Assembly: GCA_023246055.1 (NCBI GenBank)
Contig: JAHFJD010000001.1
Span: forward strand, 2,781 to 66,780
DNA: 64,000 bases
From: Candidatus Doudnabacteria bacterium
Lineage (GTDB): Bacteria; Patescibacteriota; Doudnabacteria; UBA920; 2-01-FULL-46-14
Direction: 5' to 3'
Shown: piece by piece, positions 18,026 through 48,620 of the stretch
Numbering within the stretch: the stretch's first letter is position 1
Layout: each line of letters begins with the position of its first letter
Translations under genes and position numbers: made by a program
The notes under the pieces: model-generated
What the model saw: the letters and a program-made list of their open reading frames with translations, nothing else
What the model was told of the DNA's origin: nothing
The model's database searches: none

Positions 18026-18093
18026 TGTCATTCCCGCGGAGGCGGGAATCTATATAAACTAATCCTGGATTCCGGGTCAAGCCCGGAATGACA
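18026..18093. repeat. MITE-like element (family 2) with 9-bp terminal inverted repeats TGTCATTCC/GGAATGACA and internal hairpins
   Basis: TGTCATTCCCGCGGAGGCGGGAATC...CTGGATTCCGGGTCAAGCCCGGAATGACA; homologous copy at 48561-48620 and partial copy at 32304-32355. Confidence 0.55.
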
Positions 18094-18229
18094 ACCATTG
18101 TTAATGGTGCTCTTTATCACCCTATGGTGCTCTTGGCCACTCAATATCTTTATTGTATGCTCTCCTGTCACCATTGTCAACCCCGAACTGATTCGGTCCC
18201 AAAGCAGTGGTGCATTAAGGAGGAACAGG

Positions 18230-18769
18230 ATGGAGATAGAAGAAGGTAAAACAGCTTTGATTCAAACGGTCAAGTCGTTAGACAGAGACGACTCACTCAT
18301 CAGAAAAATTCAAGAAGAGGAGATTCCAGCAACTCCTTTGCCTAAAAATTTGCGGGCTTTGGTCGAGGTGATTGTGATGCATCTTACAAGGCTGGGGACT
18401 TTGTGCGGCTCTGTCCCCTCTTGCAATGGCTGGTCACTGGCTGTCCGTGAGGCTCCGGAGACAAGGGATCACTATTCTCAACAATGCTTTTTTGCAGTAA
18501 AAGGCCAATCGCGAGTTAGGCTTAGTAGAAGTTATTTGACGGATTTAGTTAAACCTTCGGAAGTGCTTGGGGTAGTACAGGCTTTGTCCACGTTGCCAGC
18601 AATTCTGACGGCTTGGCAGAGAGACGTAGAAAAGAAAAAGAAAGACGCGGCGGAGAAATTAAAAAAGACCGAAGGTGAGCTTGTGGAGGCAGAAAAGCAA
18701 TTAACCGATCTTTGTCGGGAATTGGTTAAAGTATCTACAGAAATTCTGAATCAAAAAAAGGAGAACTGA
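18230..18769 (+). CDS. Hypothetical protein with C-terminal coiled coil (first gene of 3-gene cassette)
   Basis: Start at ATG 18230 preceded by AGGAGG; 179 aa; KKKDAAEKLKKTEGELVEAEKQL coiled coil; no known domain. Confidence 0.5.
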   Translation: MEIEEGKTALIQTVKSLDRDDSLIRKIQEEEIPATPLPKNLRALVEVIVMHLTRLGTLCGSVPSCNGWSLAVREAPETRDHYSQQCFFAVKGQSRVRLSRSYLTDLVKPSEVLGVVQALSTLPAILTAWQRDVEKKKKDAAEKLKKTEGELVEAEKQLTDLCRELVKVSTEILNQKKEN

Positions 18770-18770
18770 A

Positions 18771-19424
18771 ATGCGGAAAAAGCTAATGGCGATGTGGAAA
18801 ACGCTATGGAGAACGTTTCTGTCTTATTTGATCGGTTGTGTGTTTGGGACTTTACTGTCCGCCCAAGACATCTCCCGGGCATCGTTTCTTTTGACGGCGG
18901 TCACTGTGACGGCCTTTGTCGTGTCGTTCAAACATCCCTTTGCCTCCCTTGCGAAAAGCGAGTGGTGGCAAAGATATGTTTTGCAATACGCGCCCTCGGC
19001 TCTGTTTGGACTCATCGCACCAGCAGTCTGGCAGGAAGCGGGTATTGCCGGGATTGTAATTCTGCTTGTCTCTGGTTCGATCCATGTCTCAAGCTGGAAT
19101 AACAATTCTGACTCCCGCTGGTACCGTTTGCAGCAGTTTCGGGAAGGGCTGGCGCAGGAGATGCCAGCCACCAACAGAGTGATTTCATTCCTCAATGGTC
19201 GCGGGTTGTCTGACGAGGCTGATCTGATCCTCTTGGCGATTTTTCGGGAGAAATCCAAAGACGAATGCGTGTCCCCAATGTTTGACATGAAGGAGATCCA
19301 GATGCAGTTTGACCTCGGTCAGCAGTGGCTTTTCCTAGACATTGCCAAGGAATTGACGAAGTACGTTGGGGTGAGAATGGGCCGCGGCATCGAAGTTCCA
19401 GAGAATATGGAGGAGAATCAATGA
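18771..19424 (+). CDS. Hypothetical membrane protein (N-terminal TM helices + cytoplasmic domain)
   Basis: 217 aa; 2-nt spacing to upstream gene; stop overlaps next start (ATGA). Confidence 0.5.
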   Translation: MRKKLMAMWKTLWRTFLSYLIGCVFGTLLSAQDISRASFLLTAVTVTAFVVSFKHPFASLAKSEWWQRYVLQYAPSALFGLIAPAVWQEAGIAGIVILLVSGSIHVSSWNNNSDSRWYRLQQFREGLAQEMPATNRVISFLNGRGLSDEADLILLAIFREKSKDECVSPMFDMKEIQMQFDLGQQWLFLDIAKELTKYVGVRMGRGIEVPENMEENQ

Positions 19425-19858
19425 AAAACAGGCATACCAGGAGCAACAGATATCCGATCACGGACGAGGTTCGAGTTTGGATAGTAAACTGCATCCGCAA
19501 GATCAATCTAACGCAAGACCTTTTGGCAAGCGAAAGCGGCGTGAAGAGATCGTGGCTTTCTCAAGTCTTGTCAGGGAGAAGGCACCAAGCAGTTGATCCG
19601 AACCTGATGCAGAGACTGCAGAGCGGTCTTGCAAAAGCCTTGAAAGAGTCCAAAGCTGAGGGGGTACAACAGCTGATCAGCGAGCTTCGCGTGCACTTTG
19701 CCGCGTTCGTGGACAATCTCCAGAGTTTGGACGATACCTCGTCTGCCTCTATGCGGATTGCTGCGGAGCTGCTTGAGAAACTGATTCAGGCTTGTCCCAG
19801 CAAGAAACAGCGCCTGCAAGTCATCAAGTTTTTGCAAATCATCGTCGAATCAGATTGA
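19421..19858 (+). CDS. HTH-domain protein (XRE-like)
   Basis: 145 aa from ATG 19421 (overlapping stop); LTQDLLASESGVKRSWLSQVLSGRR HTH-like. Confidence 0.5.
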   Translation: MKNRHTRSNRYPITDEVRVWIVNCIRKINLTQDLLASESGVKRSWLSQVLSGRRHQAVDPNLMQRLQSGLAKALKESKAEGVQQLISELRVHFAAFVDNLQSLDDTSSASMRIAAELLEKLIQACPSKKQRLQVIKFLQIIVESD

Positions 19859-19869
19859 GCTTTGATTTC

Positions 19870-19915
19870 ACGACCAAAAAAGGCGGCGGATAGCGAGCGA
19901 GCTACCCTACCGCCT
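19870..19915. terminator. Bidirectional rho-independent terminator
   Basis: AAAGGCGGCGGATAGCGAGCGAGCTACCCTACCGCCTTTATTTT hairpin with flanking A/T runs between convergent genes. Confidence 0.45.
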
Positions 19916-19920
19916 TTATT

Positions 19921-20178
19921 TTATTTATACAGATTGCTGTGGGTATCGAGGTCAGTGAAAAGAGCGGTATTTTTATCTAACAATTCATAAACAGCCCGAT
20001 AATCTCCGGTGATATTAATACTTCGGTATCCTTGGTATTTGCCAGTCAGGGCGTGATTACCAAGCATCGGGTGGGAAGGATTGGCCATGAATAAAATAAT
20101 TCGCTCATGAACTCGACTCTGCAATGTCCGGTATTTTTTATACTGTCTTATAAAGTCCTTGTGGTAGCGAACATTCAT
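19921..20178 (-). CDS. RelE/ParE-family toxin
   Basis: 85 aa; GDYRAVYEL motif; overlaps upstream antitoxin gene by 4 nt. Confidence 0.75.
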   Translation of the reverse strand: MNVRYHKDFIRQYKKYRTLQSRVHERIILFMANPSHPMLGNHALTGKYQGYRSINITGDYRAVYELLDKNTALFTDLDTHSNLYK

Positions 20179-20450
20179 TGAGAACGCAGGTAGCGGATGG
20201 CTTCTTGTGGATCAGAAAAAGCCGGCGAAATATTTTTTCCAGTTTTTAAATCTTTTTCAACTTTCGCCAAATGCCGCTCCAGCTTGACACTCATTTGGTA
20301 CGGAGCAGAAAAACGAATTTCTTTTTTTTCAATACTCTCCTTGAGAGAGCCAGCCACAACTGTACTCAAAGGCAAGCCGACCTCTTCGGCGAAGGTTTGC
20401 GCCTGTTTTTTGAGTGCTCTATCAATTTTGACGGTTAACACAGTTTTCAT
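20175..20450 (-). CDS. RelB/DinJ-family antitoxin
   Basis: MKTVLTVKIDRALKKQAQTFAEEVGLPLSTVV RHH-like N-terminus; start at internal Met (ORF table extends upstream). Confidence 0.7.
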   Translation of the reverse strand: MKTVLTVKIDRALKKQAQTFAEEVGLPLSTVVAGSLKESIEKKEIRFSAPYQMSVKLERHLAKVEKDLKTGKNISPAFSDPQEAIRYLRSQ

Positions 20451-20511
20451 AACAATATAACCATTGTATACACAACGGTAATATTTGTCAAGATTTATTT
20501 TTTCGGGTTTT

Positions 20512-23049
20512 TTACACGATCGTTGCGGAAGCGACAGTGTCTTTGTCATCAAGTCTGATGACGCGCACACCCTGGGTGGAACGGCCCAAGGTAGAGATAG
20601 TGCCGAGTGCAGTGCGCAGAGTCTGGCCGGCTTTGGAGATCACCACCAGATCAGCTTCGATAGCGCGATCCACAATATGCATGACACAGATGTTGCCGGT
20701 TTTTTTGGTGATATTCAGGGTTTTGATGCCCGACCCGCCGCGGCCCTGGATTTTGTATTCGGAAAGATTGGTTTTTTTGCCTAGGCCAAACTCGGACACC
20801 ACCAAAACTTGTAAATTTTTGGGATCTAAAGCTTTTTCAATGATCTCCACACTCATCACCTCATCGCCTTTGCGGAGCCTCATCCCCCGCACACCGGAAG
20901 CGTTTCTCCCCATTGGCCGGACCTGCCCCTCTTTATATCGAATAGCTTGTCCGTGGGCTGTGGTCATCATCACCTCGTCACTTCCAGAGGTCAAATGTAC
21001 CCATTTTAGTTCATCATCAGGGCGCATTTTCATGGCAATGAGTCCGGATTTTCTAACTTTGGTTAATTCAGAAATTTCCACTTTTTTGACAGTTCCGCGT
21101 TTTGTGCCCATGAACATAAATTTGTATTTTCCAGCCTCGGTTTTTCCGTACGTCAGCACTGCGGTGGCACTTTCCCCTGGCCCGAGATTCAAGAAATTCA
21201 CCAGCGCTTGCCCTTTGGCTGTCCTGGAAGTCTCGGGTAATTCATAGACTTTGGTTTGGAAAGCCCGACCTTTGTTTGTAAAAAATAAAATGTCATCATG
21301 TGTCTCGGCAGACAGCATTTTTTCCACTACATCTTCCTCTTTGGTGGTGATGCCGATCACGCCTTTGCCGCCGCGGCCTTGTTTGCGGTAAGTGTCAGGG
21401 GGTAAGCGCTTTACGTATCCTCCCTTAGTGACTACGATTATCACCTCTTCGTTGGCGATGAGATCCTCGACCTTGAACTCTCCGATCGGGGATTTTACGA
21501 GCTTGGTGCGCCGCGCATCCCCAAACTTGGTTTTGAGATCGAGAATCTCCTGTTTGATGACACCGTCAATTTTTTTCGGACTTTTGAGCAAATCTTCAAG
21601 CGTGGAAATCAGGCGGAGTTTCTCTTTGAGTTCATCATCAATTTTTTTGCGCTCGAGGCCCGCGAGAGCAGACAGGCGCATCTCCAGGATGGCTGCGGAC
21701 TGTTTGTCGGAGAGCTGGAATTTTTTCATGAGCGCAGCGTGCGCTTCCTCACGGGTAAATGATTGCTTTATGGTCTTGATTACCTCGTCAATATGATCGA
21801 GGGCTTTTTTGAGCCCCTCCAAAATGTGTGCGCGGTCGCGGGCCCGTTCCAGTTCAAAACGAGTGCGCCTCGTCACCACTTCGCGGCGGTGGGTCACGTA
21901 GTATTCCAAAATCATTTTCAGATTTAAGACCCGCGGGTCTATGCCATCCACCAGCGCCAGAGTATTGAGGTGAAAAGTCTCTTGCAATTGGGAGTAGTTA
22001 AACAGCTGGTTCAAAACTTTGTTGGGGATAGCATCCCTTTTTAGTTCGATGACAATGCGCACCCCGTCCTTGTCTGATTCGTCCCGCAGATCGCGAATCC
22101 CCTCGATTTTTTTATCCCCTACGAGTTTCGCGAATTGCTCCAAGAGTGTAGCTTTGTTTACGCGGTATGGTATTTCAGTGACAATAATATGATAACTGCC
22201 GTCTTTCACCTCAATTATCTCGGTTTTGGCGCGCATGACAATGCTTCCCTTGCCAGTGGCATATGCGGCTTTGATGGCACTCCAATCATAAATAATCCCG
22301 CCAGTGGGGAAATCCGGACCTTGCACAAATTCCGTCAAATCTTCGCTCGTGAGTTTCGGGTTGTCAATGATTGCCACGGCAGCATCCACCACTTCGCCAA
22401 GGTTGTGGGGCGGAATGTCGGTGGCCATGCCCACGGCAATGCCCAGAGTGCCATTGAGGAGCAGATTTGGGAGTTTGGCTGGCAGCACTTTTGGTTCTTT
22501 TTTTGTGGCATCATAGTTGTCCATGAAATTTACTGTGTCTTTGTCCAAATCAGTAAGCAGCTCAAGGGACATGGGCGCGAGTCTGCATTCCGAATACCGC
22601 ATGGCAGCCGGCGCGTCGCCATCGAGGGAGCCAAAATTTCCTTGTCCATCCACCAGCGGATAGCGCATGGAAAAATCTTGGGCCAGACGAACCAGTGAAT
22701 CATAGACCGCGACATCCCCGTGCGGGTGGTACTTACCAAGTACCTCTCCAACCACAGTAGCCGATTTGCGGTACCTGGCTTGCGGCGTGAGCCCCAGCTC
22801 GCTCATAGCGTAGAGCACGCGGCGATGAACCGGTTTGAGGCCGTCACGAACATCCGGTAAAGCTCGGGACACGATCACGCTCATGGCGTAATCAAGATAG
22901 CTCTCCTGCATTTCGTCCTCAATATGCCGCGGTTTTATGTAGCCGATTTCTCCGCCAGTCGGCGGATGCGGCTTCTCGAGCTTATCTTGGTGCTTCGGTT
23001 TTTTGGAGTTGTGATCGCCCGATTTTTTTGCCATCTTAGAAATTTTCAA
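20512..23049 (-). CDS. gyrA: DNA gyrase subunit A
   Basis: 845 aa, GyrA N-terminal and beta-pinwheel C-terminal domains. Confidence 0.95.
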
Positions 23050-26117: not shown

Positions 26118-26170
26118 CGGTCTGGTGCCCGAGCAGTTAGGGAGCGGTCTGCCTGCCCGCCACGGCCTGA
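26118..26170 (+). other. Partial duplicate of tRNA-Cys 5' half (38 nt identical to positions 1-38 of the intact gene)
   Basis: GGTCTGGTGCCCGAGCAGTTAGGGAGCGGTCTGC repeated verbatim at 26171. Confidence 0.6.
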
Positions 26171-26241
26171 GGTCTGGTGCCCGAGCAGTTAGGGAGCGGT
26201 CTGCAAAACCGCGTAGACGGGTGCAACTCCCGTCCAGACCT
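26171..26241 (+). tRNA. tRNA-Cys (anticodon GCA)
   Basis: 71 nt; acceptor GGTCTGG/CCAGACC, anticodon stem GCGGT/ACCGC, loop CTGCAAA; unusual T-loop TGCAACT. Confidence 0.7.
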
Positions 26242-26345: not shown

Positions 26346-26732
26346 GAATTTGTAGTATATTATAACAATCCCCAAACGAAAACGAACCGCCACGAGCTTC
26401 GGCGAAATCAAACTGAAGTCGAGAAGAGGTTATGGCAAGTTCTGCGAAATAAACAGCTTGAAGGATTATTTTTTTTCCGGCAATATAATGTTGGTCAGTA
26501 CATATTGAATTTTTATTGCCCAAAGCTGAAGCTTGCGATTGAGCTAGACGGCGGACAGCACGCTGAAGAAATAAATAAAACATACGATGATCAGCGATCC
26601 GATTTTCTGCGCGAAAGGACAATAAAAGCCTTGAGATTTTGGAATAATGAAGTAATGGAAACAATGGATGGAGTTATTGATAAGATACGAATGAAAATTA
26701 AAATAACCCCTCCTAACCTCCCCTTAGTTTAA
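26346..26732 (+). CDS. DUF559 (Vsr/PD-(D/E)xK endonuclease-like) domain protein lacking a canonical start codon
   Basis: In-frame translation ...RLWQVLRNKQLEGLFFFRQYNVGQYILNFYCPKLKLAIELDGGQH...LRFWNNEV matches DUF559; only TTG at 26505 available as start; flanked by GC hairpin repeats at 26316-26340 and 26709-26740. Confidence 0.55.
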   Translation, partial: EFVVYYNNPQTKTNRHELRRNQTEVEKRLWQVLRNKQLEGLFFFRQYNVGQYILNFYCPKLKLAIELDGGQHAEEINKTYDDQRSDFLRERTIKALRFWNNEVMETMDGVIDKIRMKIKITPPNLPLV

Positions 26733-26751
26733 GGGGAGGAACAAAGCCCAT

Positions 26752-29859: not shown

Positions 29860-29927
29860 GACCCACTGAGGGATTCGAACCCCCGACTCCCGCCGTGTAA
29901 AGGAAGAACTCCCCGCCTGCCAAAGCC
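29860..29927 (-). other. tRNA 3'-half-like fragment (T-arm GGGGGTTCGAATCCCTC + acceptor strand) without matching 5' acceptor
   Basis: Minus strand ...GGCGGGAGTCGGGGGTTCGAATCCCTCAGTGGGTCA; no complementary 5' strand found. Confidence 0.35.
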
Positions 29928-29930
29928 TGG

Positions 29931-30004
29931 TGGCCATTGCTGGGTTCGAACCAGCGACCTTTCGGATGTAAACCGAATGCTCTAACCAGCTGAGCTAAAT
30001 GGCC
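29931..30004 (-). tRNA. tRNA-Val (anticodon UAC), CCA encoded
   Basis: GGCCATTTAGCTCAGCTGGTTAGAGCATTCGGTTTACATCCGAAAGGTCGCTGGTTCGAACCCAGCAATGGCCACCA. Confidence 0.85.
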
Positions 30005-30205: not shown

Positions 30206-31690
30206 ATGACTTCTAAAAAACTTTTTTTTCTTCTGGTTTTTCTGCTTCCCATCAGCACTGGGAAAGTGTTTTTTTCGGAGCAGAGTTTTTTTTATGGTTA
30301 CCATATTTTTTATCATAGTTTTTGGGTATTCTTGACAGATATTGTATTTTGTGGTTTGATGTTGGCTTGGTTATGGGAAACCTTGACCCCCACTTCATCT
30401 CCCCCTCATGAAGGGGAGAAAATAGAAGGAGTCCCACACCAAATCACCTCAGCTTTCCTAAAAGACAGAGTTTATCAGGGATTGTTGTTTTTTTGGCTTA
30501 TTTTAGCGATTTCAACAATTCTTTCACGTGAAATGTTGCTGTCTTGGTATGGATTGGCTAGGTTTACTGAATATTTTTTCGTCTTCATCTATATCAGGGA
30601 AAATTTTCACATTTCACGTGAAATGAAGTCTTTTTTTTGGCTTATTTTAGCGATTTCTCTACTTGAAACTGGTCTTGGTATAGCCCAATACGTAAATCAA
30701 AGTTCCCTGGGTTTGAAATATCTTGGAGAATCACTTCTAAAACCAGGCATGCCAGGCGTAGCAGAATTTATTTCTCACGGAATTGGGAGCTGGCAAAACA
30801 TTTCACATGAAATGTTGGTTATGAGAGCTTACGGAACATTGCCTCACCCAAATATTTTGGGAGTTTTTCTGTTTACTGGACTGCTTGCCAATATTTGGCT
30901 TATTTATGGCACTTTGAAAGGGTTTCGATCATGGGAAATCTCTTTATTTCCAGCCCTGATCCTGGTTTCCACAGGAATGGTGTTAACTTTTTCACGCGCA
31001 GTTTGGATAGTTATTGCCCTGGTTTTGCTGAGTTTACTTGTTATGCTCCGCATCCGCAAATATCGGGTTTTTGAGACAATGCGCAGCGGGCGAAGAATGG
31101 CAGAACAGCAGGGTATTTATCTGCCCAAACATATCGCAGCCCTTATTCTGGCTTTGCTTGTGGCTTTGGGTTTGAATTTTTTTCTGTTTGGCGAGCAAAT
31201 TAAGGATCGAATAGTGGGGCGAGGTGTGGCAGCTATCGCAGAACAGGAAAGTTTTGTGGATCGCCAGCATTTCAACTCCATTTCACGTGAAATGATCAAA
31301 ACCCATCCACTGCTCGGCGTTGGGCTGCGAAATTTCGTAGCAAGAATGGATGAGTTTAACAGGCCTGCCCGCCATGCTTCGCAAGGCGATGCGGGCGGGG
31401 GAGAGCGCTTATTCCCTCAACAGCACCAGCCAGTGCACAATATTTATTTCCTGGTAGCTGCGGAAACTGGACTTGCTGGTCTCGCGGCATTGTTGTTTCT
31501 ACTCTATAATATTGTGCGACACGCAATCCAAAAGATCAGAGCCGGGGATAGGGGAGAGCGGACCATCTTGCTTGTATTGTTTTTCGGATTTCTATGTTTA
31601 GGGCTCGTTGACCACTATTTTGTTTCGATTCAGCCATCAGCCATGCTGTTTTGGATAGTGGCGGGACTCGTCTCTGCCAAAAGCGTATAA
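30206..31690 (+). CDS. O-antigen ligase/Wzy_C family polytopic membrane protein (paralogue of 6188-7654) with repeat insertions
   Basis: 494 aa; HNIYFLVAAETGLAGLAALLF Wzy_C motif; SSPPHEGEKIEG from GC hairpin; four copies of TTTCACGTGAAATG. Confidence 0.6.
   Translation: MTSKKLFFLLVFLLPISTGKVFFSEQSFFYGYHIFYHSFWVFLTDIVFCGLMLAWLWETLTPTSSPPHEGEKIEGVPHQITSAFLKDRVYQGLLFFWLILAISTILSREMLLSWYGLARFTEYFFVFIYIRENFHISREMKSFFWLILAISLLETGLGIAQYVNQSSLGLKYLGESLLKPGMPGVAEFISHGIGSWQNISHEMLVMRAYGTLPHPNILGVFLFTGLLANIWLIYGTLKGFRSWEISLFPALILVSTGMVLTFSRAVWIVIALVLLSLLVMLRIRKYRVFETMRSGRRMAEQQGIYLPKHIAALILALLVALGLNFFLFGEQIKDRIVGRGVAAIAEQESFVDRQHFNSISREMIKTHPLLGVGLRNFVARMDEFNRPARHASQGDAGGGERLFPQQHQPVHNIYFLVAAETGLAGLAALLFLLYNIVRHAIQKIRAGDRGERTILLVLFFGFLCLGLVDHYFVSIQPSAMLFWIVAGLVSAKSV
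30398..30419. repeat. GC-rich hairpin repeat (family 1) TCTCCCCCTCATGAAGGGGAGA inside CDS
   Basis: Seen directly. Confidence 0.8.
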
Positions 31691-31726: not shown

Positions 31727-32317
31727 ATGAAAAAGGTTGGTTTCGTAACGCTTGTTTGCGGAATTACTTTATGTTTGTTAATGGGGACCGCCGCGTATGC
31801 GCAAGGTTCTGACGTGGATCGCAATCGTCATGATGCAGCATTCGCGCTCTTTGATGAAATTCTATGGTACATGGACCGGGAGTCGCGTTTCGGCTGCGAG
31901 TCAAAGAATAGCCCAAGGTATTTCCCTCAATTTCCTACACTCACAATCAGTGTCTGGCAAAATGGGGTTAAAAGTCCCGCGGAGAACATTTGGAGCGATT
32001 TGCCATTATTTATTAGACAAATTGCACCAACAGTGAGGTTAGTGTCGAACGATGGCTTACTTCCTGATACGTATCGCCTCGAGATCATGGATATCACGGG
32101 ACTGGAAGGAGAACTGGCGTTGATTACGTATCAGCATTCGACATTCAATTTCAAAATGTTTGAAACTGCTAGTGCTGGGTTTGCCCGTGGTGATGCGCTC
32201 CGATCTGCCTGCGGCAGACCGGAGCGTTATTTATATAAAAAAGGTTTAGTTTTTGTATCTTTACAGTGCGGCTCGAAATCATTTCATGAGGTCGGCCGAA
32301 AACTGTCATTCCCGTGA
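31727..32317 (+). CDS. Hypothetical secreted protein (signal peptide)
   Basis: 196 aa; N-terminal hydrophobic leader ...GTAAYAQG; 3' end runs into partial MITE-like repeat. Confidence 0.45.
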   Translation: MKKVGFVTLVCGITLCLLMGTAAYAQGSDVDRNRHDAAFALFDEILWYMDRESRFGCESKNSPRYFPQFPTLTISVWQNGVKSPAENIWSDLPLFIRQIAPTVRLVSNDGLLPDTYRLEIMDITGLEGELALITYQHSTFNFKMFETASAGFARGDALRSACGRPERYLYKKGLVFVSLQCGSKSFHEVGRKLSFP

Positions 32318-32396
32318 AGCTTGCCCTCGACCACGATCGGGGGACGGGAATCCAGTTTATTGTAAAAGCCTTGATAATTTGCTCGTCTTTTTTAAC

Positions 32397-34405: not shown

Positions 34406-34798
34406 ATGGCATTTATGGCAAAACGAGATGAATATGAAAACGGCTCTACTCCGGAAACCGTCGTTGGCTCCTCGGTCAAAATCGAAGGAGATTTGGTAAG
34501 TGACGGCGATATCCGCGTGGAAGGTGCTGTGTCGGGAAAAATAAAAACCACAAAAAATCTTTACATTGGCGTAGAGTCGCAAATCGAGGCTAACGTGGAA
34601 GCTGGCAATGCAGTGATCGCGGGCCAGGTCAAAGGAGAAATCAATATCAAAGATAGTCTTCTCATCCAAGAAACTGGCAAGGTTTCCGGAAATATTTCCT
34701 GTGCCCGGTTGTCTATAACCGAAGGCGCGCGGTTTTCCGGATCATGCACCATGGCCATGCCCGAGGGGGAAACCGTTCAAACGGAGTCTAAAGAATAA
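34406..34798 (+). CDS. Bactofilin (DUF583 polymer-forming cytoskeletal protein)
   Basis: 130 aa; beta-helical repeats (IEGDLVSDGDIRVEGAVSGKI...). Confidence 0.8.
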   Translation: MAFMAKRDEYENGSTPETVVGSSVKIEGDLVSDGDIRVEGAVSGKIKTTKNLYIGVESQIEANVEAGNAVIAGQVKGEINIKDSLLIQETGKVSGNISCARLSITEGARFSGSCTMAMPEGETVQTESKE

Positions 34799-34800
34799 TC

Positions 34801-34880
34801 TACTACGAAATACGAAACGGTACGAACATACGAAAACGTACCTTTCGTACTTTCGTAAAAATTCGTAATTTCGTAGTATT
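34801..34880. repeat. TACGAA/TTCGTA-rich palindromic element (family 3), copy A, ends at ATG 34881
   Basis: tactacgaaatacgaaacggtacgaacatacgaaaacgtacctttcgtactttcgtaaaaattcgtaatttcgtagtatt; exact reverse complement of copy at 46097-46173. Confidence 0.8.
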
Positions 34881-35744
34881 ATGTATTTCTATATTTTTGA
34901 CGCGGGTAAAGACCGGGAGGTGAAAAATTTTGAGCGGATCCAAGGCCGACTCCTAAATTTACTCGCCGAACACCATATTGAAGGTGAAACCTACCGGGTG
35001 ACCTCGATCCGGACAGTGGAGCTGCTCGTAGATCAGGCGATTGGCCTTGAGGCCAAAACCGTGATTGTGGTGGGCTCGGATAGCACACTTAATCGCACTA
35101 TCAATAGCCTTGTTCGGAAAAACGTGGATATAACAGTAGGTTTTATTTCGCTTGATTCGAGTTCGCGCTTGGGCCAGATTTTCGGCATTACCGCCGACAT
35201 TGACCAATCAGTGCGCTCTCTGGCCGGCCGGCTTGTGGCCGAGCTCGATATCGGGGAAATCAATGAGCATTATTTTTTATCCAAAGTGGAACTAGGGGAG
35301 AATCAATTTTCGCAAATTGAACGAGGTTTTTTGGGGCTTACCGCAATGCGAAAATTTTTAAACCTCAAGCCCTTTGTGCTAAATCTGCGCCTTGAGGATT
35401 CCTATAATGTTTCGACGGAGGTGTTGGCGGCGCAGATTATCAATTGCCGCAACAATGAGGGCTGCAAGATGAAGCTTGGCAACCCCACTGACCGGCTGCT
35501 CGATATTTTGCTTTTAAATAAATTATCAGCAACTCAGATCATTCGATACCGGCGCGATTTGGAGGGTAGGTGTTTTGATAACCTGCCTGGTGCGACTATC
35601 ATGCATGCTAAAAAGATAGAAGTCCTTGGCCCGCGCAAACTGCCCCTGGCCATTGAAGGACAGGTTTATACGAAAGCGCCGGCTATGGTCAAAATCGCGA
35701 AACAAAAAATCAAGATGATTGTCGGCAAACCCCGGCAGTTTTAG
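34881..35744 (+). CDS. DAGK_cat/YegS-like lipid kinase family protein
   Basis: 287 aa; ...KTVIVVGSDSTLNRTINSL... resembles diacylglycerol-kinase catalytic domain (GGDGT-like motif degenerate). Confidence 0.5.
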   Translation: MYFYIFDAGKDREVKNFERIQGRLLNLLAEHHIEGETYRVTSIRTVELLVDQAIGLEAKTVIVVGSDSTLNRTINSLVRKNVDITVGFISLDSSSRLGQIFGITADIDQSVRSLAGRLVAELDIGEINEHYFLSKVELGENQFSQIERGFLGLTAMRKFLNLKPFVLNLRLEDSYNVSTEVLAAQIINCRNNEGCKMKLGNPTDRLLDILLLNKLSATQIIRYRRDLEGRCFDNLPGATIMHAKKIEVLGPRKLPLAIEGQVYTKAPAMVKIAKQKIKMIVGKPRQF

Positions 35745-38479: not shown

Positions 38480-40477
38480 ATGGATTTAAGTACTTTATCC
38501 CAGCAGCTGAATATGTCAGTGCAGGAACTGCGCGCGAAGATGCGAGTGGCCGGATTTCGTGTGTCGCTGAAAGCACGCAAGGTGGAGAACAGTCTCGCAA
38601 GAGATATTTACAAGAAGCTTTCCGGGGTTGTGCCAGAGGCAGAGCCGAAAGCAGTCAAAATCACAAAGATTAGTGTGCCGCCGTTTATTACGGTCAAAGA
38701 ATTGGCAGAAAAATTGCATGAGCCTGTCACTGCGGTGATCAAAAAACTCATTCAGAATGGAGTGATGGCGACAATCAACGAGGAGATAGATACAGAAACC
38801 GCTGCCATCATCGCGGCAGAGTATGGAGTTGAGGTCGAAGCAGAACAAGCCAGTGGAGAGAGCGTGAAACTGGGCCTTGGTTATGTATCTGAACAAATGG
38901 GCCGGGAAAACGCGACAGATCTCGAGACTCGCCCGCCGATTGTGGCTGTGATGGGACATGTTGATCATGGCAAGACCACTTTGCTTGATACTATCCGCAA
39001 AACCAAAGTGGCAGCCTCGGAAGCCGGTGCTATTACTCAGCACATTGGTGCGTATCAAATTGAGGTTCCGCAGGAACCGAAATCCCGAGGAGGCGGAGCC
39101 GAGCTCGGGATCCCCGCCTCCGCTGGGGATGATTTTACTGGACGTAAAATCACCTTTCTTGACACTCCGGGCCACGAAGCTTTTGCAGCAATGCGAGCTC
39201 GCGGCGCTAATGTCACAGACATCATTGTTCTAGTCGTGGCGGCAGACGATAGCGTGAAGCCGCAAACTTTGGAGGTTATCAATCGAGCCAAGCTGACCAA
39301 AACGCCAATGATAGTGGCGATCAACAAAGTTGACAAACCAGAAGCCAATCCGGAGCGAGTGAAAGCGGATTTGGTAAATCTCGGAGTAACCATCGAGGAG
39401 TGGGGTGGCGGAACGCCGGCTGTGAATATTTCTGCAAAAACCGGACTCGGCATTGAAAAACTTTTGGAAACTATTCTGCTGGTCGCAGAGGTTGAAGAAC
39501 TCAAAGCCAATCCCAAAGGCCAGACCCTGGGGACAGTAATCGAATCGCATCTGTCCAAAGGACAGGGGGCGGTGGCCACAGTCATCGTGCAAAACGGAAT
39601 TTTGCGAAATGGCGACAACGTGATGGTGGGGAGCACTCACGGCCGGGTAAGGAGCATGGAAGATGCAGCCGGTAAAAGGGTGAAAGAGGCCGGGCCAGCT
39701 CTGCCTGTGGTTATTTCTGGACTCTCAGACCTACCCGAAGTCGGCGATATTTTGCGCGTGGCCCTGACACTCGAAGAGGCCAGAGCTGAAGCCATTGCGC
39801 TCGCGAAACTCGAGCGCGCCAAGCGGCTCTTGAGCCGCAGCGAGCTCAAACCTGATCCATCGACGCGCGAGCTCAAGCTCATCTTGCGTGCTGACATGGC
39901 AGGCAGTCTCGGGGCGATTACTGATGCTCTGGGGAAGCTTGGCACAGAAGAGGTGAAGGTGAATATTGTTGACCAGAAAGTGTCCGAGATTACAGAATCA
40001 GACATTCTCCTCGCGGAAAATACTGGGTCGCCGATCATCGGATTTCACACGAGGTTTACTCCGGGAGCCGCGAAACTAGCCAAGCAGAAAAATATCACAG
40101 TGGATATCTATGAAGTGATCTATGAACTCATTGAGGACGTGACATCAGCCCTTCTCCGGATGATGCCCATGGTGATTGTGGAAACAGTTTTGGGCAAGGC
40201 CAAAATCAAGGCCGTGTTCCGGACCGAAAAAGACGGTGGCATAGTCGGTGGCGAGGTGGCTGATGGCAAGATTGTAGACAAGAAAAAATTCCGCATCATG
40301 CGCGAGCAGCAATTGGTTGGCGAGGGGAAAATCGAAGAGCTGCAGCAGAACAAGGTCGAAGTCGGAGAGGTGGCTGTCGGTCGGGAATTTGGCCTGAAGA
40401 TTCGGTCAACAGTCCCCGTTAAGAGCGGTGATGTGCTGGAAATTTACGATGAGAGTGTGAAAAAGAAAGGCACGTAG
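38480..40477 (+). CDS. infB: Translation initiation factor IF-2
   Basis: 665 aa; GTPase G1-G4 motifs (GHVDHGKTT, DTPGH, NKVD), IF-2 C-terminal domains. Confidence 0.95.
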   Translation: MDLSTLSQQLNMSVQELRAKMRVAGFRVSLKARKVENSLARDIYKKLSGVVPEAEPKAVKITKISVPPFITVKELAEKLHEPVTAVIKKLIQNGVMATINEEIDTETAAIIAAEYGVEVEAEQASGESVKLGLGYVSEQMGRENATDLETRPPIVAVMGHVDHGKTTLLDTIRKTKVAASEAGAITQHIGAYQIEVPQEPKSRGGGAELGIPASAGDDFTGRKITFLDTPGHEAFAAMRARGANVTDIIVLVVAADDSVKPQTLEVINRAKLTKTPMIVAINKVDKPEANPERVKADLVNLGVTIEEWGGGTPAVNISAKTGLGIEKLLETILLVAEVEELKANPKGQTLGTVIESHLSKGQGAVATVIVQNGILRNGDNVMVGSTHGRVRSMEDAAGKRVKEAGPALPVVISGLSDLPEVGDILRVALTLEEARAEAIALAKLERAKRLLSRSELKPDPSTRELKLILRADMAGSLGAITDALGKLGTEEVKVNIVDQKVSEITESDILLAENTGSPIIGFHTRFTPGAAKLAKQKNITVDIYEVIYELIEDVTSALLRMMPMVIVETVLGKAKIKAVFRTEKDGGIVGGEVADGKIVDKKKFRIMREQQLVGEGKIEELQQNKVEVGEVAVGREFGLKIRSTVPVKSGDVLEIYDESVKKKGT

Positions 40478-40561
40478 CGATCCCAATCTACGAATGACAT
40501 ACTAATGATACGAATGCATTCGAAACATTGGAATGAAGATTAGAGTCATTAGAATCGCCAC

Positions 40562-40912: not shown

Positions 40913-41864
40913 TTTGCAAAAACAGTTTGCAGCCGCCAGGGAGCTTGTGAGGGGTTACCTGCGGTTTATTGTGATTTCTCATGAATATACGGATGGGGAT
41001 GATTTGGGATCCCTACTCGCTCTGGCTCGGGTTCTAGAAGCTGAGGGCAAAGTGGTGGCCAGAGTGGCTTTTGGCGGGATGCCGGAAAATCTGCTGTTTA
41101 TGCCGGGGCACAGTGAGTTGCAAAGCGCGTTGCCTCATGATTTTCAAGAGTATGATTGTTTGATTACATTGGGCTGCGGGAAACTCGATCGCGCGGGTTT
41201 TCCGGCCTTGCAGAACTGGTCCAAGCCAATTTTGAATATTGATCACCACCATGACACTCAAATGTTTGGCACGGTGAATGTCTGGGATGAAAAACGGGCG
41301 GCCAATTGTGAGCTTGTGTACGTGATGCTCAAAGATTGGGGAGTGGCGATAGATAAAGTTGTTGCCCTGAATTTGCTCACCGGAATCTTCACAGACACGG
41401 GCGGTTTCAGACATGCCAATGTCACGAGCGATACTCTGGAAATCGCTGCGGAATTGTTGCGTCGCGGGGCGCGGCTGGATCTCATTTCGCGTTTTACAAT
41501 GTCTCGCAAGGATTTGCCAAAACTGCGGGTTTGGGCCATGGCCCTCGAACACGCGCGTTTCGACGAGAAGCGCAAGGTTGTATATACTGTAGTTACGGCA
41601 GAAGATTTGGAAAAAGCCGGAGCCAGAGAAGAGGACCTTGAGGGTGTGGCCGAGCTTCTGAACACCATCCCGGAAGCGAAATTTTCTATGCTCTTAAAGC
41701 AGCGGGGGGGTGAGGTAAAAGGGAGCTTGAGATCAGAGCCGCATAAAGGTGTGGATGTCTCCGAGATCGCGAGATCTTTTGGCGGCGGCGGTCACAAACT
41801 CGCCGCGGGATTCAAATTTGACGGGACGATCGAAAAGACTGAATCAGGTTGGCGAATCTCCTAG
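40878..41864 (+). CDS. DHH/DHHA1 phosphoesterase (NrnA-like nanoRNase/pAp phosphatase)
   Basis: ISHEYTDGDDLGS, NIDHHHD, GGGGHKLAAG (DHHA1) motifs. Confidence 0.8.
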   Translation: MNWPMTIPVRSDLQKQFAAARELVRGYLRFIVISHEYTDGDDLGSLLALARVLEAEGKVVARVAFGGMPENLLFMPGHSELQSALPHDFQEYDCLITLGCGKLDRAGFPALQNWSKPILNIDHHHDTQMFGTVNVWDEKRAANCELVYVMLKDWGVAIDKVVALNLLTGIFTDTGGFRHANVTSDTLEIAAELLRRGARLDLISRFTMSRKDLPKLRVWAMALEHARFDEKRKVVYTVVTAEDLEKAGAREEDLEGVAELLNTIPEAKFSMLLKQRGGEVKGSLRSEPHKGVDVSEIARSFGGGGHKLAAGFKFDGTIEKTESGWRIS

Positions 41865-41947
41865 TACTACGAACTACGAATTTTTACGAAAGTACGAAAG
41901 GAGACAAGGTTTTTTTGTAATTTCGTATTTATTAGTAATTTCGTAGT
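41865..41947. repeat. TACGAA-rich element (family 3), copy B, ends at ATG 41948
   Basis: tactacgaactacgaatttttacgaaagtacgaaagg...taatttcgtagt; first 37 nt match copy C. Confidence 0.7.
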
Positions 41948-42451
41948 ATGACGACTGTCAAAGACATCATGACTAAAAATGTAATCTTCTGCACACCGTA
42001 TGATTCCATCCGAGATGCAGCGCGGTTGATGTTTTTAAATGCGCTGACCGGCCTGCCAGTAGTTGATGAAGAGAGCAAGGTCATGGGTATCATCACCGAG
42101 GTTGACATTGTGAAGCTTGAGGAGCCAGTGCATATCCCGAAAATGCTAGCTATCCTCGGTAGTTTCGTGTATTTGGACAATCCGATAAACGGTGATGAGA
42201 TTGAAAAACAGCTAGAGGTTTTAACAGCCACCAAGGTGAACGAAGTGATGACCACTGACGTGGTTAGTGTTGGGCCGGATGATTCGGTTGAAACTCTAGC
42301 GGAAATTTTTTTGCACAAAAAAGTCAATCCCGTTCCGGTGGTGGAGGCTGGCAAACTCGTTGGCATCGTGAGCCGCGCTGACATTGTGAAACTCATTGCC
42401 GGTGACAAGGAATTGGCAAGACAAGAATGGAAAGCGCTCGTGAAGAAATAA
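41948..42451 (+). CDS. CBS-domain pair protein
   Basis: 167 aa; two CBS motifs (VVDEESKVMGIITEVDIV; PVVEAGKLVGIVSRADIV). Confidence 0.8.
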   Translation: MTTVKDIMTKNVIFCTPYDSIRDAARLMFLNALTGLPVVDEESKVMGIITEVDIVKLEEPVHIPKMLAILGSFVYLDNPINGDEIEKQLEVLTATKVNEVMTTDVVSVGPDDSVETLAEIFLHKKVNPVPVVEAGKLVGIVSRADIVKLIAGDKELARQEWKALVKK

Positions 42452-43235: not shown

Positions 43236-43310
43236 AAATTGATTTTAACGTACTTTGGTTAAAATAGCAAGTCTGATATTTTTAACCGTTCCAATTGAAA
43301 AGGAGGACAA

Positions 43311-44225: not shown

Positions 44226-44250
44226 ATGATGGAATTTAAGAGAAAAACTC

Positions 44251-44501: not shown

Positions 44502-44502
44502 T

Positions 44503-44754: not shown

Positions 44755-44825
44755 AGGCTAAATTATACATCAAAGTGGGAGCGCTGGGAATCCCTGCCCG
44801 CAGTGCTACGCATCAGAGACTAATG

Positions 44826-44898
44826 TGGGTCCGGCGCGAGTCGAACGCGCGACCGTTGGCTTAAAAGGCCACTGCTCTACCAGCTGAGCTACGGACCC
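44826..44898 (-). tRNA. tRNA-Lys (anticodon UUU)
   Basis: GGGTCCGTAGCTCAGCTGGTAGAGCAGTGGCCTTTTAAGCCAACGGTCGCGCGTTCGACTCGCGCCGGACCCA; loop CTTTTAA. Confidence 0.85.
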
Positions 44899-44947
44899 AT
44901 AAATTTACTTGATAATTATACAAAATTTAACAAATCTTTTCCAGGCC

Positions 44948-46096
44948 TCAAAAGCTGTCTTTTATTTTTCCCCAGAAACTTTTGTTCACGTTCACTGTTT
45001 CACCAGACTCCTCGGCCAAAGTTTTGAGGAGTTCTTTTTCTTTTTTCGTGAGTTTCTGCGGGGTGACTATGCGCACAGTGACCAAATGATCGCCTCGCCG
45101 TGTTTTGTGGTCTAGGTGTGGCACCCCTTTCCCAGCGAGGCGCAAAATTTTTCCTGATTGAATTCCCGCTGGAATTTTTAACATGACCGGCCCGTCTACA
45201 GTAGCGACCTCGGTTTCCCCTCCGAGAGTGGCCCCATAAAAACTGATCGGGATCTCGCTGCGGATATCAAAGCCGTCCCGGATAAATTCCGGATGCGCTT
45301 TGACCCGAATCTGAATATACAGATCGCCGGGTTTGGTGCCGCGGTATCCCATTTCTCCTTCTCCGGTGAGGCGAATCCGCTGCCCCGAATCTATGCCGGC
45401 TGGAATGTTTATGGTAATGGTTTTTGTTTGACGTTTGATCCCCGCGCCTACGCATTCACGGCAAGGTTTTTCCGGGATTTTCCCTGTCCCATCACAACGG
45501 TCACAAGTTTGAGCTGATTGCATATTGCCGAGGATGGTGCGGCGGTGAGTGATAATCTGCCCTTGGCCATGGCATTTGGGGCAGGTGATGACCTCGGTTC
45601 CGGGTTCTGCACCTTGGCCTTTGCAATGCTGGCAAGCATCCTTTTTTTCAAGATTAATTTTCTTTTCTAACCCAGTCACGCTTTCCAGAAATTCGATATC
45701 AAGGTTCATCTCCAGGTCTATGCCCTGGGGTTTGCGGGTTTTGCGTCCCCCGCCGAAAATATCAGAGAAGATATCAGAAAAATCCGCGCTAAAAGTTGAT
45801 CCGTTTCCCGCGGAAAACCCGCCAAAGTCGAAGCCCTGAGAAAAATCCCCGGTAAATCCGCCAAAGCCGCTGCCTTGTCCGGCTTGATCAAAGGTCTGCC
45901 CGAACCGGTCATACTGCGCGCGCTTCGCGTCATCAGAGAGAGCCTCATAGGCCTCATTGACTTCCTTAAATTTTTGCGCCTCGCCGCCACCCTTGTCAGG
46001 GTGATACTCGTGCGCGAGCCGCCGATAGGCGCGTTTAATCTCGTCTTTGGACGCGGTTTTGGGAACCCCTAGAATTTGATAAAAGTCCTTAGCCAT
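44948..46096 (-). CDS. dnaJ: Chaperone DnaJ
   Basis: 382 aa; J-domain HPD, G/F region, 4x CxxCxGxG zinc finger. Confidence 0.95.
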   Translation of the reverse strand: MAKDFYQILGVPKTASKDEIKRAYRRLAHEYHPDKGGGEAQKFKEVNEAYEALSDDAKRAQYDRFGQTFDQAGQGSGFGGFTGDFSQGFDFGGFSAGNGSTFSADFSDIFSDIFGGGRKTRKPQGIDLEMNLDIEFLESVTGLEKKINLEKKDACQHCKGQGAEPGTEVITCPKCHGQGQIITHRRTILGNMQSAQTCDRCDGTGKIPEKPCRECVGAGIKRQTKTITINIPAGIDSGQRIRLTGEGEMGYRGTKPGDLYIQIRVKAHPEFIRDGFDIRSEIPISFYGATLGGETEVATVDGPVMLKIPAGIQSGKILRLAGKGVPHLDHKTRRGDHLVTVRIVTPQKLTKKEKELLKTLAEESGETVNVNKSFWGKIKDSF

Positions 46097-46173
46097 ACTA
46101 CGAAATTACGAATTTTTACGAAAGTACGAAAGGTACGTTTTCGTATGTTCGTACCGTTTCGTATTTCGTAGTA
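46097..46173. repeat. TACGAA-rich element (family 3), copy C, between dnaK stop and dnaJ ATG; identical to reverse complement of copy A
   Basis: actacgaaattacgaatttttacgaaagtacgaaaggtacgttttcgtatgttcgtaccgtttcgtatttcgtagtag. Confidence 0.8.
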
Positions 46174-46174
46174 G

Positions 46175-48025
46175 TTATTTTTTTTCTTTAAACTCCGCAT
46201 CTTCGGGTTTGTCTTTCTTCTCTTCTGTTTTCCCGTCTGCTGACTTCTGATTTCCGTCTCCCGTCTGTCCGCCAGGGGCGGACTGATACATTTGCGCGCC
46301 AACCTTTTGGATTTCCGCGCTGATTTCGTCCATTTGTTTTTTGATGGGCTCAATGTCACTGCCGTCTTTGACTTTTTTGAGCTCCGCGACCTTGGCTTCG
46401 AGGTTCGTTCTGGTTGCTACATCTATTTTATCGCCTCCATCCTTGAGAGTTTTTTCCACGACTGTGATGAGTCCGTCAGCTTGGTTGCGGATGTCCACTA
46501 CTTCGCGGCGTTTGCGGTCTTCCTCGGCATGCGCTTCCGCTTCTTTTTTCATGCGCTCTATCTCGTCTTTGGAAAGGTTGGAAGACCCGGAAATCGTGAT
46601 GTGCTGCTCTTTGCTGGTGGCCTTATCGCGAGCCGTGACCTTGAGGATGCCGTTGGCATCAATATCAAAAGTCACTTCAACCTGGGGCACACCGCGCGGT
46701 GCTGGCGGCAAGCCGTCGAGAATAAATCTCCCTAGAGATTTGTTGTCTGCGGCCATGGGCCGCTCTCCTTGCAGAACATGGATTTCGACAGAGGTCTGAT
46801 TGTCTCCGGCTGTGGAAAATGTCTGGGATTTGGCGGTGGGGATAGTGGTATTGCGTTCGATGAGAGGAGTAGCCACGCTGCCCAGAGTTTCTATTCCCAG
46901 AGTCAGGGGAGTAACATCTAAAAGCAAGACGTCTTTGACTTCACCGCCCAGGACCCCGGCCTGGATGGCTGCTCCCTTGGCGACCGCCTCCATCGGATCA
47001 ATACCGCGTTCCACTTGTTTGCCAATGTAGTCCTCTACATTTTTTTGCACTATTGGCATGCGAGTCGGACCGCCGACCATGATGATTTTATCAATATCTT
47101 TCGGCGACAATTTGGCATCAGTTAGCGCCTGTTCCAGAGAAGTTCGGGTGCGTTCCACGATCGGTCGGACGAGCTCCTCGAGCTTCGCGCGGGTGATTTT
47201 TAGGCTAAGATGTTTGGGGCCTGCGCTATCCGCGGTGATGAATGGCAGGTTGATTTCCGTTTCCAGAGTGGTGGAGAGCTCGATCTTGGCTTTTTCCGCA
47301 GCTTCCTTGAGGCGATTAAATGCCATTTTATCCTGCTTGATGTCGATTCCGGATTCTTTTTTAAATTCGTCAGCGATATATTCCATGATCCGGTTATCCA
47401 TGTCTGTGCCGCCCAAATGCGTATCGCCCGAGGTGGATACTACTTCAAACACACCTTGACCGAAATCCATGATGGTGACGTCAAGCGTGCCGCCGCCGAA
47501 ATCGAACACCAGGATTTTTTGTTCCGCACCTCCTTTATCCAGACCGTAAGCCAGAGCCGCGGCGGTTGGCTCGTTGATGATCCGGATGATTTCTAGGCCA
47601 GCGATTTCTCCGGCATTTTTTGTGGCTTGCCGCTGGGCATCGTCAAAATACGCCGGCACAGTGACCACGGCTTTGGAGATCGGTTCGCCCAGGTAGGCCT
47701 CCGCATCCTTTTTGATTTTCTGCAAGATAAAGGCGGAAATTTGTTCCGGAGTATATTCTTTGTCTTTCATTTTCACTTTATCCTTGGTTCCCATTTTACG
47801 TTTCACGGAATAGACTGTGCCTTCCGGATTGGTGACAGCTTGGCGCCTGGCTGGCTCACCCACCAGAAGCTCGCCGTCTTTTGTCATGGCCACGTAGGAT
47901 GGAAAGGCTTTGCCGCCACCGACCGTGGTGCCTTCTGCAGAGGGAATGATGACCGGCTTGCCGCCTTCGAGCACCGCCGCCGCGCTGTTAGATGTCCCGA
48001 GATCGATTCCTATAATTTTTGGCAT
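46175..48025 (-). CDS. dnaK: Chaperone DnaK (Hsp70)
   Basis: 616 aa; [23 protein letters not shown] Hsp70 signatures. Confidence 0.95.
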
Positions 48026-48091
48026 ATAGATTTTCCTTACTTTAATTATTCTTATAGATCCCCGCCTCCGCAGGGATGAAAGTCGCTAGTT

Positions 48092-48550
48092 TTACTTCAC
48101 GACTTTCACCTTAGCAGGTCTGATGACTTTATTGTTAAGTTTATAGCCTGGTTGCACCTCTTCGATTATCGTTCCCGATTCTCCGTCTCCAGCTGTCATC
48201 TCTACGGCTTCATGAAGCTGAAAATCGAATCTCTCTCCCACGGTCTTGATTTTTTCTATTCCCATTTCGAGAAGCGTTTTCTCCAGTTGCTGCACGATTT
48301 TTATGACTCCTTGCGACCAAGTTTCAAATTGTTGGTCCTGGGGAGAATTTTTCAGCGCCCGCTCCAGACTCTCCAGTGTCGGCAGCATTTTTACTACCGT
48401 AACCTCTTGCGCAAACTGGATGAGTTCCTGATTTTCTTTGTCGCGCCGCTTTTTGTAATTCTCAAAATCCGCGGCAGTCCGTTTCCAATTGTTGAGGTAT
48501 TCTTCGGCTTTTTGCTTGAATTCTTCTAATTCACTATTTGTTTCTTCCAT
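48092..48550 (-). CDS. grpE: Nucleotide exchange factor GrpE
   Basis: 152 aa; GrpE coiled-coil + beta domain. Confidence 0.9.
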   Translation of the reverse strand: MEETNSELEEFKQKAEEYLNNWKRTAADFENYKKRRDKENQELIQFAQEVTVVKMLPTLESLERALKNSPQDQQFETWSQGVIKIVQQLEKTLLEMGIEKIKTVGERFDFQLHEAVEMTAGDGESGTIIEEVQPGYKLNNKVIRPAKVKVVK

Positions 48551-48560
48551 ATCATTCTTC

Positions 48561-48620
48561 TGTCATTCCCGCGGAAGCGGGAATCCAGTTTCTGGATCCC
48601 AAATCAAGTTTGGGATGACA
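48561..48620. repeat. MITE-like element (family 2) with TGTCATTCC/GGGATGACA terminal inverted repeats, 11 nt upstream of grpE ATG
   Basis: tgtcattcccgcggaagcgggaatccagtttctggatcccaaatcaagtttgggatgaca. Confidence 0.6.

Follow-up and report, generated by a model that had tools for sequence, protein, structure and literature searches.

Paired hairpins in the intergenic gaps of a Candidatus Doudnabacteria genome are probably CGTC-tagged REP dimers

We identified two short palindromic elements, at 18026-18093 (copy 1) and 48561-48620 (copy 2), within a 64-kb stretch of the genome of Candidatus Doudnabacteria, a candidate-phyla-radiation lineage to which the GrpE and TrmB homologues assign the stretch. 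The whole of this stretch is called the window here, and loci from other genomes are given L numbers. Each element is an inverted pair of hairpins whose unpaired TGTC tags face outwards and whose CCAG-type tails face inwards. The elements are insertions: they are absent from the orthologous sites of L121, L253 and L339, and they end at the outer T of each TGTC tag. With a probability of roughly three in four, we consider them to be tags-out pairs of CGTC-tagged repetitive extragenic palindromic (REP) sequences, with a left arm of the CGTC-1 type, like the Neisseria Transformation Sequence (NTS) and dRS3, and a right arm of the CGTC-2 type. They would then be selfish, non-autonomous insertions of a pan-bacterial class related to the Ssn family of GIY-YIG nucleases.

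The original prediction, made from the window alone, had described a family resembling miniature inverted-repeat transposable elements (MITEs), with a common left arm and GGRATGACA ends. Both copies are indeed present, share the left arm TGTCATTCCCGCGGARGCGGGAATC and terminate in GGRATGACA. Arm a of copy 1 (18026..18053, plus strand) is made up of the TGTC tag, the stem strand ATTCCCGC, a GGAG loop, the returning strand GCGGGAAT and a CTAT tail, and is an NTS/dRS3-like REP of the CGTC-1 type. Arm b of copy 1 (18065..18093, minus strand) reads TGTC, ATTCCGGG, CTTGA, CCCGGAAT and CCAG, and with its 5-nt loop is of the CGTC-2 type. In copy 2, the NTS-like arm a (48561..48588, plus strand) has TGTC, ATTCCCGC, GGAA, GCGGGAAT and CCAG, and arm b (48592..48620, minus strand) has TGTC, ATCCCAAA, CTTGA, TTTGGGAT and CCAG. 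All of these stems are 8 bp long, and three of the four tails are CCAG. The 3′-most stem bases of the two arms are 19 nt apart in copy 1 and 11 nt apart in copy 2. Since each copy is a pair of separate tags-out hairpins, the supposed terminal inverted repeats are simply the tags together with the first stem bases.

These structures are not random. The pattern ATTCCCGYGNNNGCGGGAAT has five matches in the window against 0.49 expected, and a census of TGTCAT...ATGACA pairs no more than 100 nt apart, as the original prediction had proposed, returned exactly two against 0.21 in simulations. A structure-aware scan for GTC followed by an 8-9 bp stem beginning AT and a 3-7 nt loop found four perfect hairpins with tag and 8-bp stem, plus one probable chance match, against 0.25 expected; in total, the 64 kb hold 5-6 hairpins against 0.25-0.4 expected. 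Folded as single-stranded DNA (ssDNA), each copy forms two 8-bp hairpins (z = -4.3 to -6.4), and copy 2 has an alternative pairing within its outer TGTCAT/ATGACA segments and within its central ATCCAG/CTGGAT segments. The right arms of the two copies differ at eight positions, which amount to four compensatory base-pair swaps with no pair disrupted.

Two further hairpins in the window stand alone. The first, at 32304..32355 (plus strand), had been taken for a truncated copy of the doublet and is instead a single hairpin composed of TGTC, ATTCCCGT, a 28-nt loop enclosing another, smaller hairpin, ACGGGAAT and CCAG. An unpaired TGTC tag lies 5′ of all five well-formed hairpins. The second is a degenerate solo hairpin (TTTCATCCCTGCGGAGGCGGGGATC) at 48053..48084 (minus strand), with TTTC, ATCCCTGC, GGAG, GCGGGGAT and CTAT, and is located in the gap between grpE and dnaK.

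Evidence for insertion comes from copy 2, which sits within the hrcA-grpE-dnaK-dnaJ operon on the minus strand, between hrcA (48604..49356, 250 aa) and grpE (48092..48550), whose start is 10 nt from the element. We compared this junction with relatives (L121, GrpE 82% identical; L253, 79%; L249, 83%); a GrpE-based metagenome scan gave one close relative, L253, among the matches listed. In L121 and L253, hrcA and grpE overlap by ATGA, and HrcA of L121 is 245 aa long, the length that hrcA of the window would have without the element. Deleting exactly 48561-48620 from the window joins GTAT to GAAG and creates GTA TGA, which restores a 245-aa HrcA with the grpE start eight bases on. The inserted unit is therefore 60 nt long, beginning with the T of a TGTC and closing with the A of a GACA. 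As no base has to be duplicated in this reconstruction, the hrcA/grpE junction lacks a target-site duplication, and a check for such duplications at both full copies, as the original prediction had advised, found none (flanks GTGTAT/GAAGAA and AATGGT/GAAATG). We also considered an ancestral grpE start restored by excision (MKND-MEET...) and rejected it, since several relatives with a 152-aa GrpE begin at the same ME... as the window.

The grpE-dnaK gap spans 11-22 nt in L121, L249 and L253, compared with 66 nt (48026-48091) in the window, where it holds the degenerate hairpin. This gap has received insertions repeatedly in the clade, with a solo hairpin in the window and other contents in relatives. 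In L125-L128 it is occupied by another TGTCAT...ATGACA dimer (L125 5006-5101), and in L250-L252 by a Bro-N gene with small open reading frames (ORFs) (L250 10523-12078).

Copy 1 lies upstream of a gene for a TrmB-family helix-turn-helix regulator (17262..18014, minus strand), 11 nt from its start. An alignment of five orthologous regions showed that the promoter and an operator-like block of the TrmB leader are conserved and that the segment downstream of them is variable. This segment contains the NTS-type dimer in the window, no element in L339, a different dimer (TGTCATCCTGAGG...CAGAATGACA) in L336/L337 and, at the exact place of the window's dimer, a D1-type hairpin element (CCCCTCCC) in L333.

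A classical MITE, that is, a deletion derivative of an insertion sequence (IS) mobilised by a DDE transposase acting on the 9-bp termini TGTCATTCC/GGAATGACA, would account for the inverted ends (TGTCAT(T/C)CC...GG(A/G)ATGACA), the length of 60-68 bp and the presence or absence of the element at orthologous sites. However, neither copy shows a target-site duplication, and to restore the hrcA site it is enough to remove the 60-nt unit bounded by TGTC and GACA. The termini belong to independent hairpins, whose tag and stem they represent and which are also found singly (at 32304, and in 55 of the 130 hairpins listed in the survey described below), and the internal stems differ by compensatory changes, which would be unexpected in a decaying IS. 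In addition, neither the window nor the loci examined showed a transposase gene with such ends, and CGTC REPs have been reported without association to transposase genes (PMC3733652). We regard a classical MITE as very improbable. What holds of the MITE-like description is that the elements are repeated, have inverted termini and have been inserted, as the empty sites in L121, L253 and L339 demonstrate.

Both full copies lie 10-11 nt before a start codon (the starts proposed for grpE at 48550 and TrmB at 18014 are correct) and are followed by GAA...ATGA...ATATG, and in L249 a hairpin of the same class is found 13 nt before grpE. The position and spacer of the two full copies had suggested a mobile promoter or 5′-leader cassette, in which the downstream gene would receive its promoter, ribosome-binding site or leader from the element. 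However, the conserved promoters lie outside the elements. The TrmB gene has a sigma-70-like promoter, TTGACA-17-TACAAT, upstream of copy 1 (18180-18152, minus strand; 11 of 12 matches), which is conserved in relatives, and this promoter and the operator-like block are kept in relatives whether these have another element at the site or lack one. The operon has a perfect sigma-70 promoter, TTGACA-17-TATAAT, upstream of hrcA (49439-49474, minus strand), overlapped by the CIRCE operator TTAGCACTTGACAGGGTTGAGTGCTAA; a TACGAA element is inserted between this CIRCE-overlapped promoter and the hrcA start. Copy 2 is internal to the operon, and no internal promoter is needed for grpE because hrcA and grpE overlap in relatives. 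We found no gene-directed promoter-like site within the element sequences and no terminator U-tract at the elements, and in relatives the same genes are expressed although the element is missing or replaced by another. The elements thus carry no promoter and are not needed for promoter function, and a promoter or leader cassette is highly unlikely.

The conserved spacer that had been proposed to lead from both elements into the start codon, GAA(A/G)-TGA-NN-ATATG, shrinks on inspection to GAA and a partial echo of the element end. The GAA is common to both copies because a T/C-rich 5′ flank is general for this hairpin in all phyla. The remainder is a resemblance between two sequences, in which the element end is echoed as AATGAC-AGA-AATGAC in copy 1 and GAATGA-CAGAA-GAATGA in copy 2, and in the empty-site reconstruction the spacer after copy 2 is host DNA. 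The genome is compact and its intergenic gaps are very short, so that any insertion into them would show the same nearness to start codons.

The insertions have had side effects on the host genes, namely a 5-residue tail and a new stop codon in HrcA, the loss of the hrcA/grpE overlap and a spurious 28-aa N-terminal extension of TrmB. The 3′ end of hrcA, namely its final five codons and its stop (LSSQT*, 48604-48606 for the stop), lies in arm b of copy 2. The single hairpin at 32304-32355 lies between convergent ORFs and holds the stop codon of ORF 31727-32317, which had no match in Pfam or NCBIfam. Both this hairpin and copy 2 overlap the 3′ ends of upstream ORFs. The public gene call for TrmB (P0121, 278 aa) begins at 18098 on the minus strand and translates copy 1. 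The real start is at 18014, given that the TrmB proteins of relatives are 247-254 aa long, and the TrmB call in L333 is likewise too long (285 aa), via a different repeat. Rickettsia palindromic elements (RPEs) insert into genes and add residues to proteins. They are usually longer (about 100-150 bp) and lie in coding regions, whereas only five codons of hrcA are affected here.

The CGTC REPs were described by Di Nocera, De Gregorio and Rocco in 2013 (PMC3733652). Their tag, CGTC and often TGTC but also CCTC, is unpaired at one end of a palindrome with a stem of 8-9 bp (8 bp in families 1 and 2) that begins with AT, the loop has 4 nt in family 1 and 5 nt in families 2-4, and the tail is CCA-like. 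They are numerous in each genome, occur mostly as HH dimers with the tags outside and the partners 1-100 bp apart, often as heterodimers, and were reported from five phyla, mostly Alphaproteobacteria (PMC3733652). Family CGTC-1 comprises dRS3 in Neisseria and RPE-6 in Rickettsia, and CGTC-4 corresponds to RPE-4; no dedicated transposase was found for these repeats, and none of them adjoined a RAYT gene (PMC3733652). The elements of the window share the TGTC tag, the 8-bp stem beginning with AT, loops of 4 or 5 nt, the CCA-type tail and the tags-out dimer. CGTC REPs also often lie near or overlap the ends of ORFs, and donated stop codons have been reported for GTAG REPs (PMC3733652). Unlike the published CGTC REPs, those in the window are found in a candidate-phyla-radiation bacterium, and each dimer combines a family-1 arm with a family-2-like arm.

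The left arms also resemble NTS (CGTCATTCCCGCGMAVGCGGGAATCYRG), which encompasses dRS3 and is the substrate of SsnA, a 94-aa single-domain GIY-YIG protein that binds and cuts NTS only as ssDNA and on one strand only (PMC11893778, published in 2025). The cut has been placed just 5′ of the tag, within 0-3 nt, and the critical bases are the three nucleotides ahead of the palindrome and the C directly behind it (PMC11893778). Copy 2 matches the NTS consensus at 26 of 28 positions and copy 1 at 25 of 28; with two and three mismatches, both fail the NTS threshold of no more than one mismatch, and both keep the critical bases, GTC before ATTCCC and C after GGGAAT. The hairpin is oriented, as in NTS, and a 25-mer of it adjoins GIY-YIG genes of about 95 aa in other genomes. 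In contrast to NTS, the tag in the window starts with T and not C, and the loop opens with G, a base that the published patterns for NTS and for Ssn-related motifs (SRMs) do not allow at this position. Neisseria copies form large clusters (NIMEs), whereas the window has isolated dimers, and dimers are not described in PMC11893778.

A 25-mer with the loop variant of the window was sought in species-representative genomes (596 Gb). The original prediction would have favoured a shared grpE/trmB promoter had only the copies in the window existed; the 25-mer was found in at least 120 stretches with at least 130 hairpins from more than 20 phyla or classes, compared with about 0.002 expected by chance. 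The hosts include Patescibacteria of many candidate phyla, Planctomycetota, several proteobacterial classes, Chloroflexota and Omnitrophota, as well as Nitrospiria, Cloacimonas, Ignavibacteriales and others, and a looser pattern also matches widely in viral contigs. Among the 130 hairpins listed, 75 (58%) are accompanied within 110 nt by an inverted partner in tail-to-tail orientation, partners in other arrangements are head-to-head (18) or direct (13 and 32), and 55 hairpins occur singly; their tails read YAG, and T and C predominate in the 5′ flank. The right arm of copy 1 is found in identical form in Candidatus Jettenia (L172) and, with C for T at the first base of the tag, in Nitrospiria (L158).

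We also aligned 13 distinct CTTGA-loop hairpins from many phyla. In these, 97% of cells are paired, compensatory changes occur in five of the six pairs that are not fixed by the search pattern, and none of 500 shuffles reaches the score. A conserved tag, loop and tail together with a co-varying stem is the pattern that would be expected if a protein reads the folded strand. The viral contigs L012 and L017 were found to carry arrays of NTS-type hairpins, spaced by about 68 and 155-175 nt, with 13 copies in 13.5 kb in L017. These arrays resemble the clustered organisation seen in Neisseria and Wolbachia and not the isolated dimers of the window. A CRISPR-like array was also considered for these hits, but their spacing is irregular and the motif is NTS.

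Genes encoding Ssn in many phyla are flanked by SRMs, and the motif-ssn-motif unit resembles an insertion sequence (PMC11893778). In L136, L221, L233 and L242, the hairpin has a GIY-YIG ORF (PF01541) of 95-98 aa at a distance of 16-68 nt, and similar GIY-YIG ORFs were found near hairpins of the same class in the viral loci L037 and L095. The sample that yielded the window also contains a 92%-identical relative, whose gene table places a 94-aa GIY-YIG gene (PF01541) in the grpE-dnaK gap. A search of PDB sequences with an Ssn-like protein gave no match. In Candidatus Paceibacterota (L132, 4100-4529), tRNA-like sequences enclose a GIY-YIG gene of another subtype (84 aa), and an NTS-type hairpin lies 2.7 kb away.

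By analogy with REPINs and their RAYT enzymes, we infer that an Ssn-type GIY-YIG nuclease, with extruded or single-stranded DNA as its substrate, may spread the dimers in trans. The two hairpins of a dimer would extrude on single-stranded DNA, as in REPINs, an Ssn-family nuclease encoded elsewhere in the genome would cut or join the hairpins in trans, and the dimers would settle as selfish passengers in the host's few non-coding gaps. REPINs and BIMEs are likewise non-autonomous doublets of inverted REP hairpins on which a single-strand-specific enzyme is thought to act in trans. They differ in the tag, which is GTAG and not CGTC/TGTC, and in the enzyme superfamily, which is HUH-Y1 compared with a candidate GIY-YIG here.

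A REPIN in the strict sense, namely a REP doublet mobilised by a RAYT (a HUH tyrosine transposase of the IS200/IS605 type), would have the same architecture, in which inverted REP hairpins are separated by 3-20 nt and are able to form a single larger fold. Nevertheless, the tag of the window's elements is TGTC/CGTC, CGTC REPs are not next to RAYT genes (PMC3733652), and the gene that adjoins this hairpin in other genomes encodes a GIY-YIG protein. No HUH gene was present in the Pfam lists of neighbouring genes, although no systematic search of the window for RAYT was made. We consider a strict REPIN extremely unlikely.

Several observations weigh against the view that the dimers are CGTC-tagged REP pairs of an Ssn-related class. 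The established activity of Ssn is the cutting of ssDNA, not transposition or joining. A search for ssn or other GIY-YIG genes by motif scans and tblastn, in the window and about 255 kb of Doudnabacteria, recovered only UvrC, and the 94-aa GIY-YIG gene in the 92%-identical relative is known from a gene table. The strict published SRM pattern, which requires A or C at the start of the loop, has no match in the window, where this position is G. The 64 kb hold no more than 5-6 hairpins, and canonical copies of the hairpin are rare in the sampled relatives. Finally, the L249 hairpin of the same class before grpE has the other arm type, and the history of the hrcA/grpE site may therefore include several insertions, or an inversion.

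It is possible, but rather doubtful, that the tags-out dimers are true non-autonomous transposons which a GIY-YIG Ssn moves by precise insertion of the unit from TGTC to GACA without target duplication. If so, they would represent a REPIN-like system with a third class of enzyme, neither DDE nor HUH, that is active even in the reduced genomes of the candidate phyla radiation, and the hrcA/grpE site with its empty orthologues would be a natural before-and-after example. The filled and empty sites, with boundaries exactly at the tags, provide material for testing whether Ssn enzymes spread hairpins.

Both dimers also align with the full model of the Francisella small RNA (sRNA) FtrB in Rfam (RF02748), at 18015-18109 and 48551-48640, with scores of 34.2 and 27.4 bits that lie below the gathering threshold of 66; a third score, of 21.4 bits, is likewise under this threshold. 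Like the dimer, the 115-nt FtrB model comprises two hairpins, first CAUUCCCGCG-loop-CGGGAAUC and then one with a UCAAG loop. FtrB differs in being a stand-alone transcript with its own promoter, and the dimers of the window score about half of the gathering threshold. The end-to-end alignment of FtrB with both dimers suggests that the published sRNA may be a transcribed CGTC-REP dimer.

This likeness raises the question of whether the elements have been exapted, either as RNA stabilisers, processing sites or FtrB-like sRNAs, or as DNA marks for cleavage by Ssn during transformation. In addition to the sub-threshold matches to the whole FtrB model, copy 2 must be transcribed as part of the operon mRNA, the stems are preserved by compensatory changes, and in Neisseria SsnA/NTS reduces transformation by NTS-bearing DNA (PMC11893778). 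On the other hand, deletion of ftrB gave no phenotype in growth, stress sensitivity or virulence (PMC3091763), and the elements have no U-tract terminator. Their presence varies at the same sites among close relatives, which argues against a needed local function, and recognition of the hairpin by a nuclease would explain the conservation of the stems equally well. We therefore consider exaptation unlikely, and favour selfish CGTC-tagged REP pairs as the explanation of the two dimers.

This assignment averts a wrong annotation of the elements as promoters or leaders and identifies corrupted gene calls, with 28 aa too many in TrmB and a foreign tail of five residues in HrcA. It would also extend the repeat class of Ssn substrates (NTS/SRM) to Candidatus Doudnabacteria. 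What is new here is the host lineage and the dimer with mixed arms; the kind of repeat itself was described in 2013, and its enzyme partner was added in 2025.

Other repeats were also found in the window. A third palindromic family of about 85 nt, with the termini ACTACGAAATACGAA...TTCGTATTTCGTAGT, has copies at 49355-49439, 46095-46184, 34790-34879 and 41862-41950 and partial copies at 7655-7694 and 40476-40515. The copies at 34790-34879 and 46095-46184 are 96% complementary, and members of this family end 0-2 nt before start codons (hrcA, dnaJ and the ORF at 34881). These elements also look like insertions, since the dnaK-dnaJ gap of L249 is only 3 nt. A hairpin family ACCCCCTCT..TCTCCCCCTCACGAGGGGGAG, which is probably the first family described by the original prediction, occurs at 188-224, 1287-1323, 6325-6361, 12817-12853, 26705-26741, 30386-30422 and 56055-56081, with inverted copies near 6366, 54946 and 56116, and a member of this type occupies the TrmB leader of L333. 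Among the tRNA genes, a tRNA-Ile with the anticodon UAU lies at 16556-16631, and at 26119-26204 the 5′ half of tRNA-Cys is present a second time immediately upstream of its gene, as a perfect direct repeat of 34 nt. At 29860-30004, two predictions of tRNA-Val(UAC) overlap.

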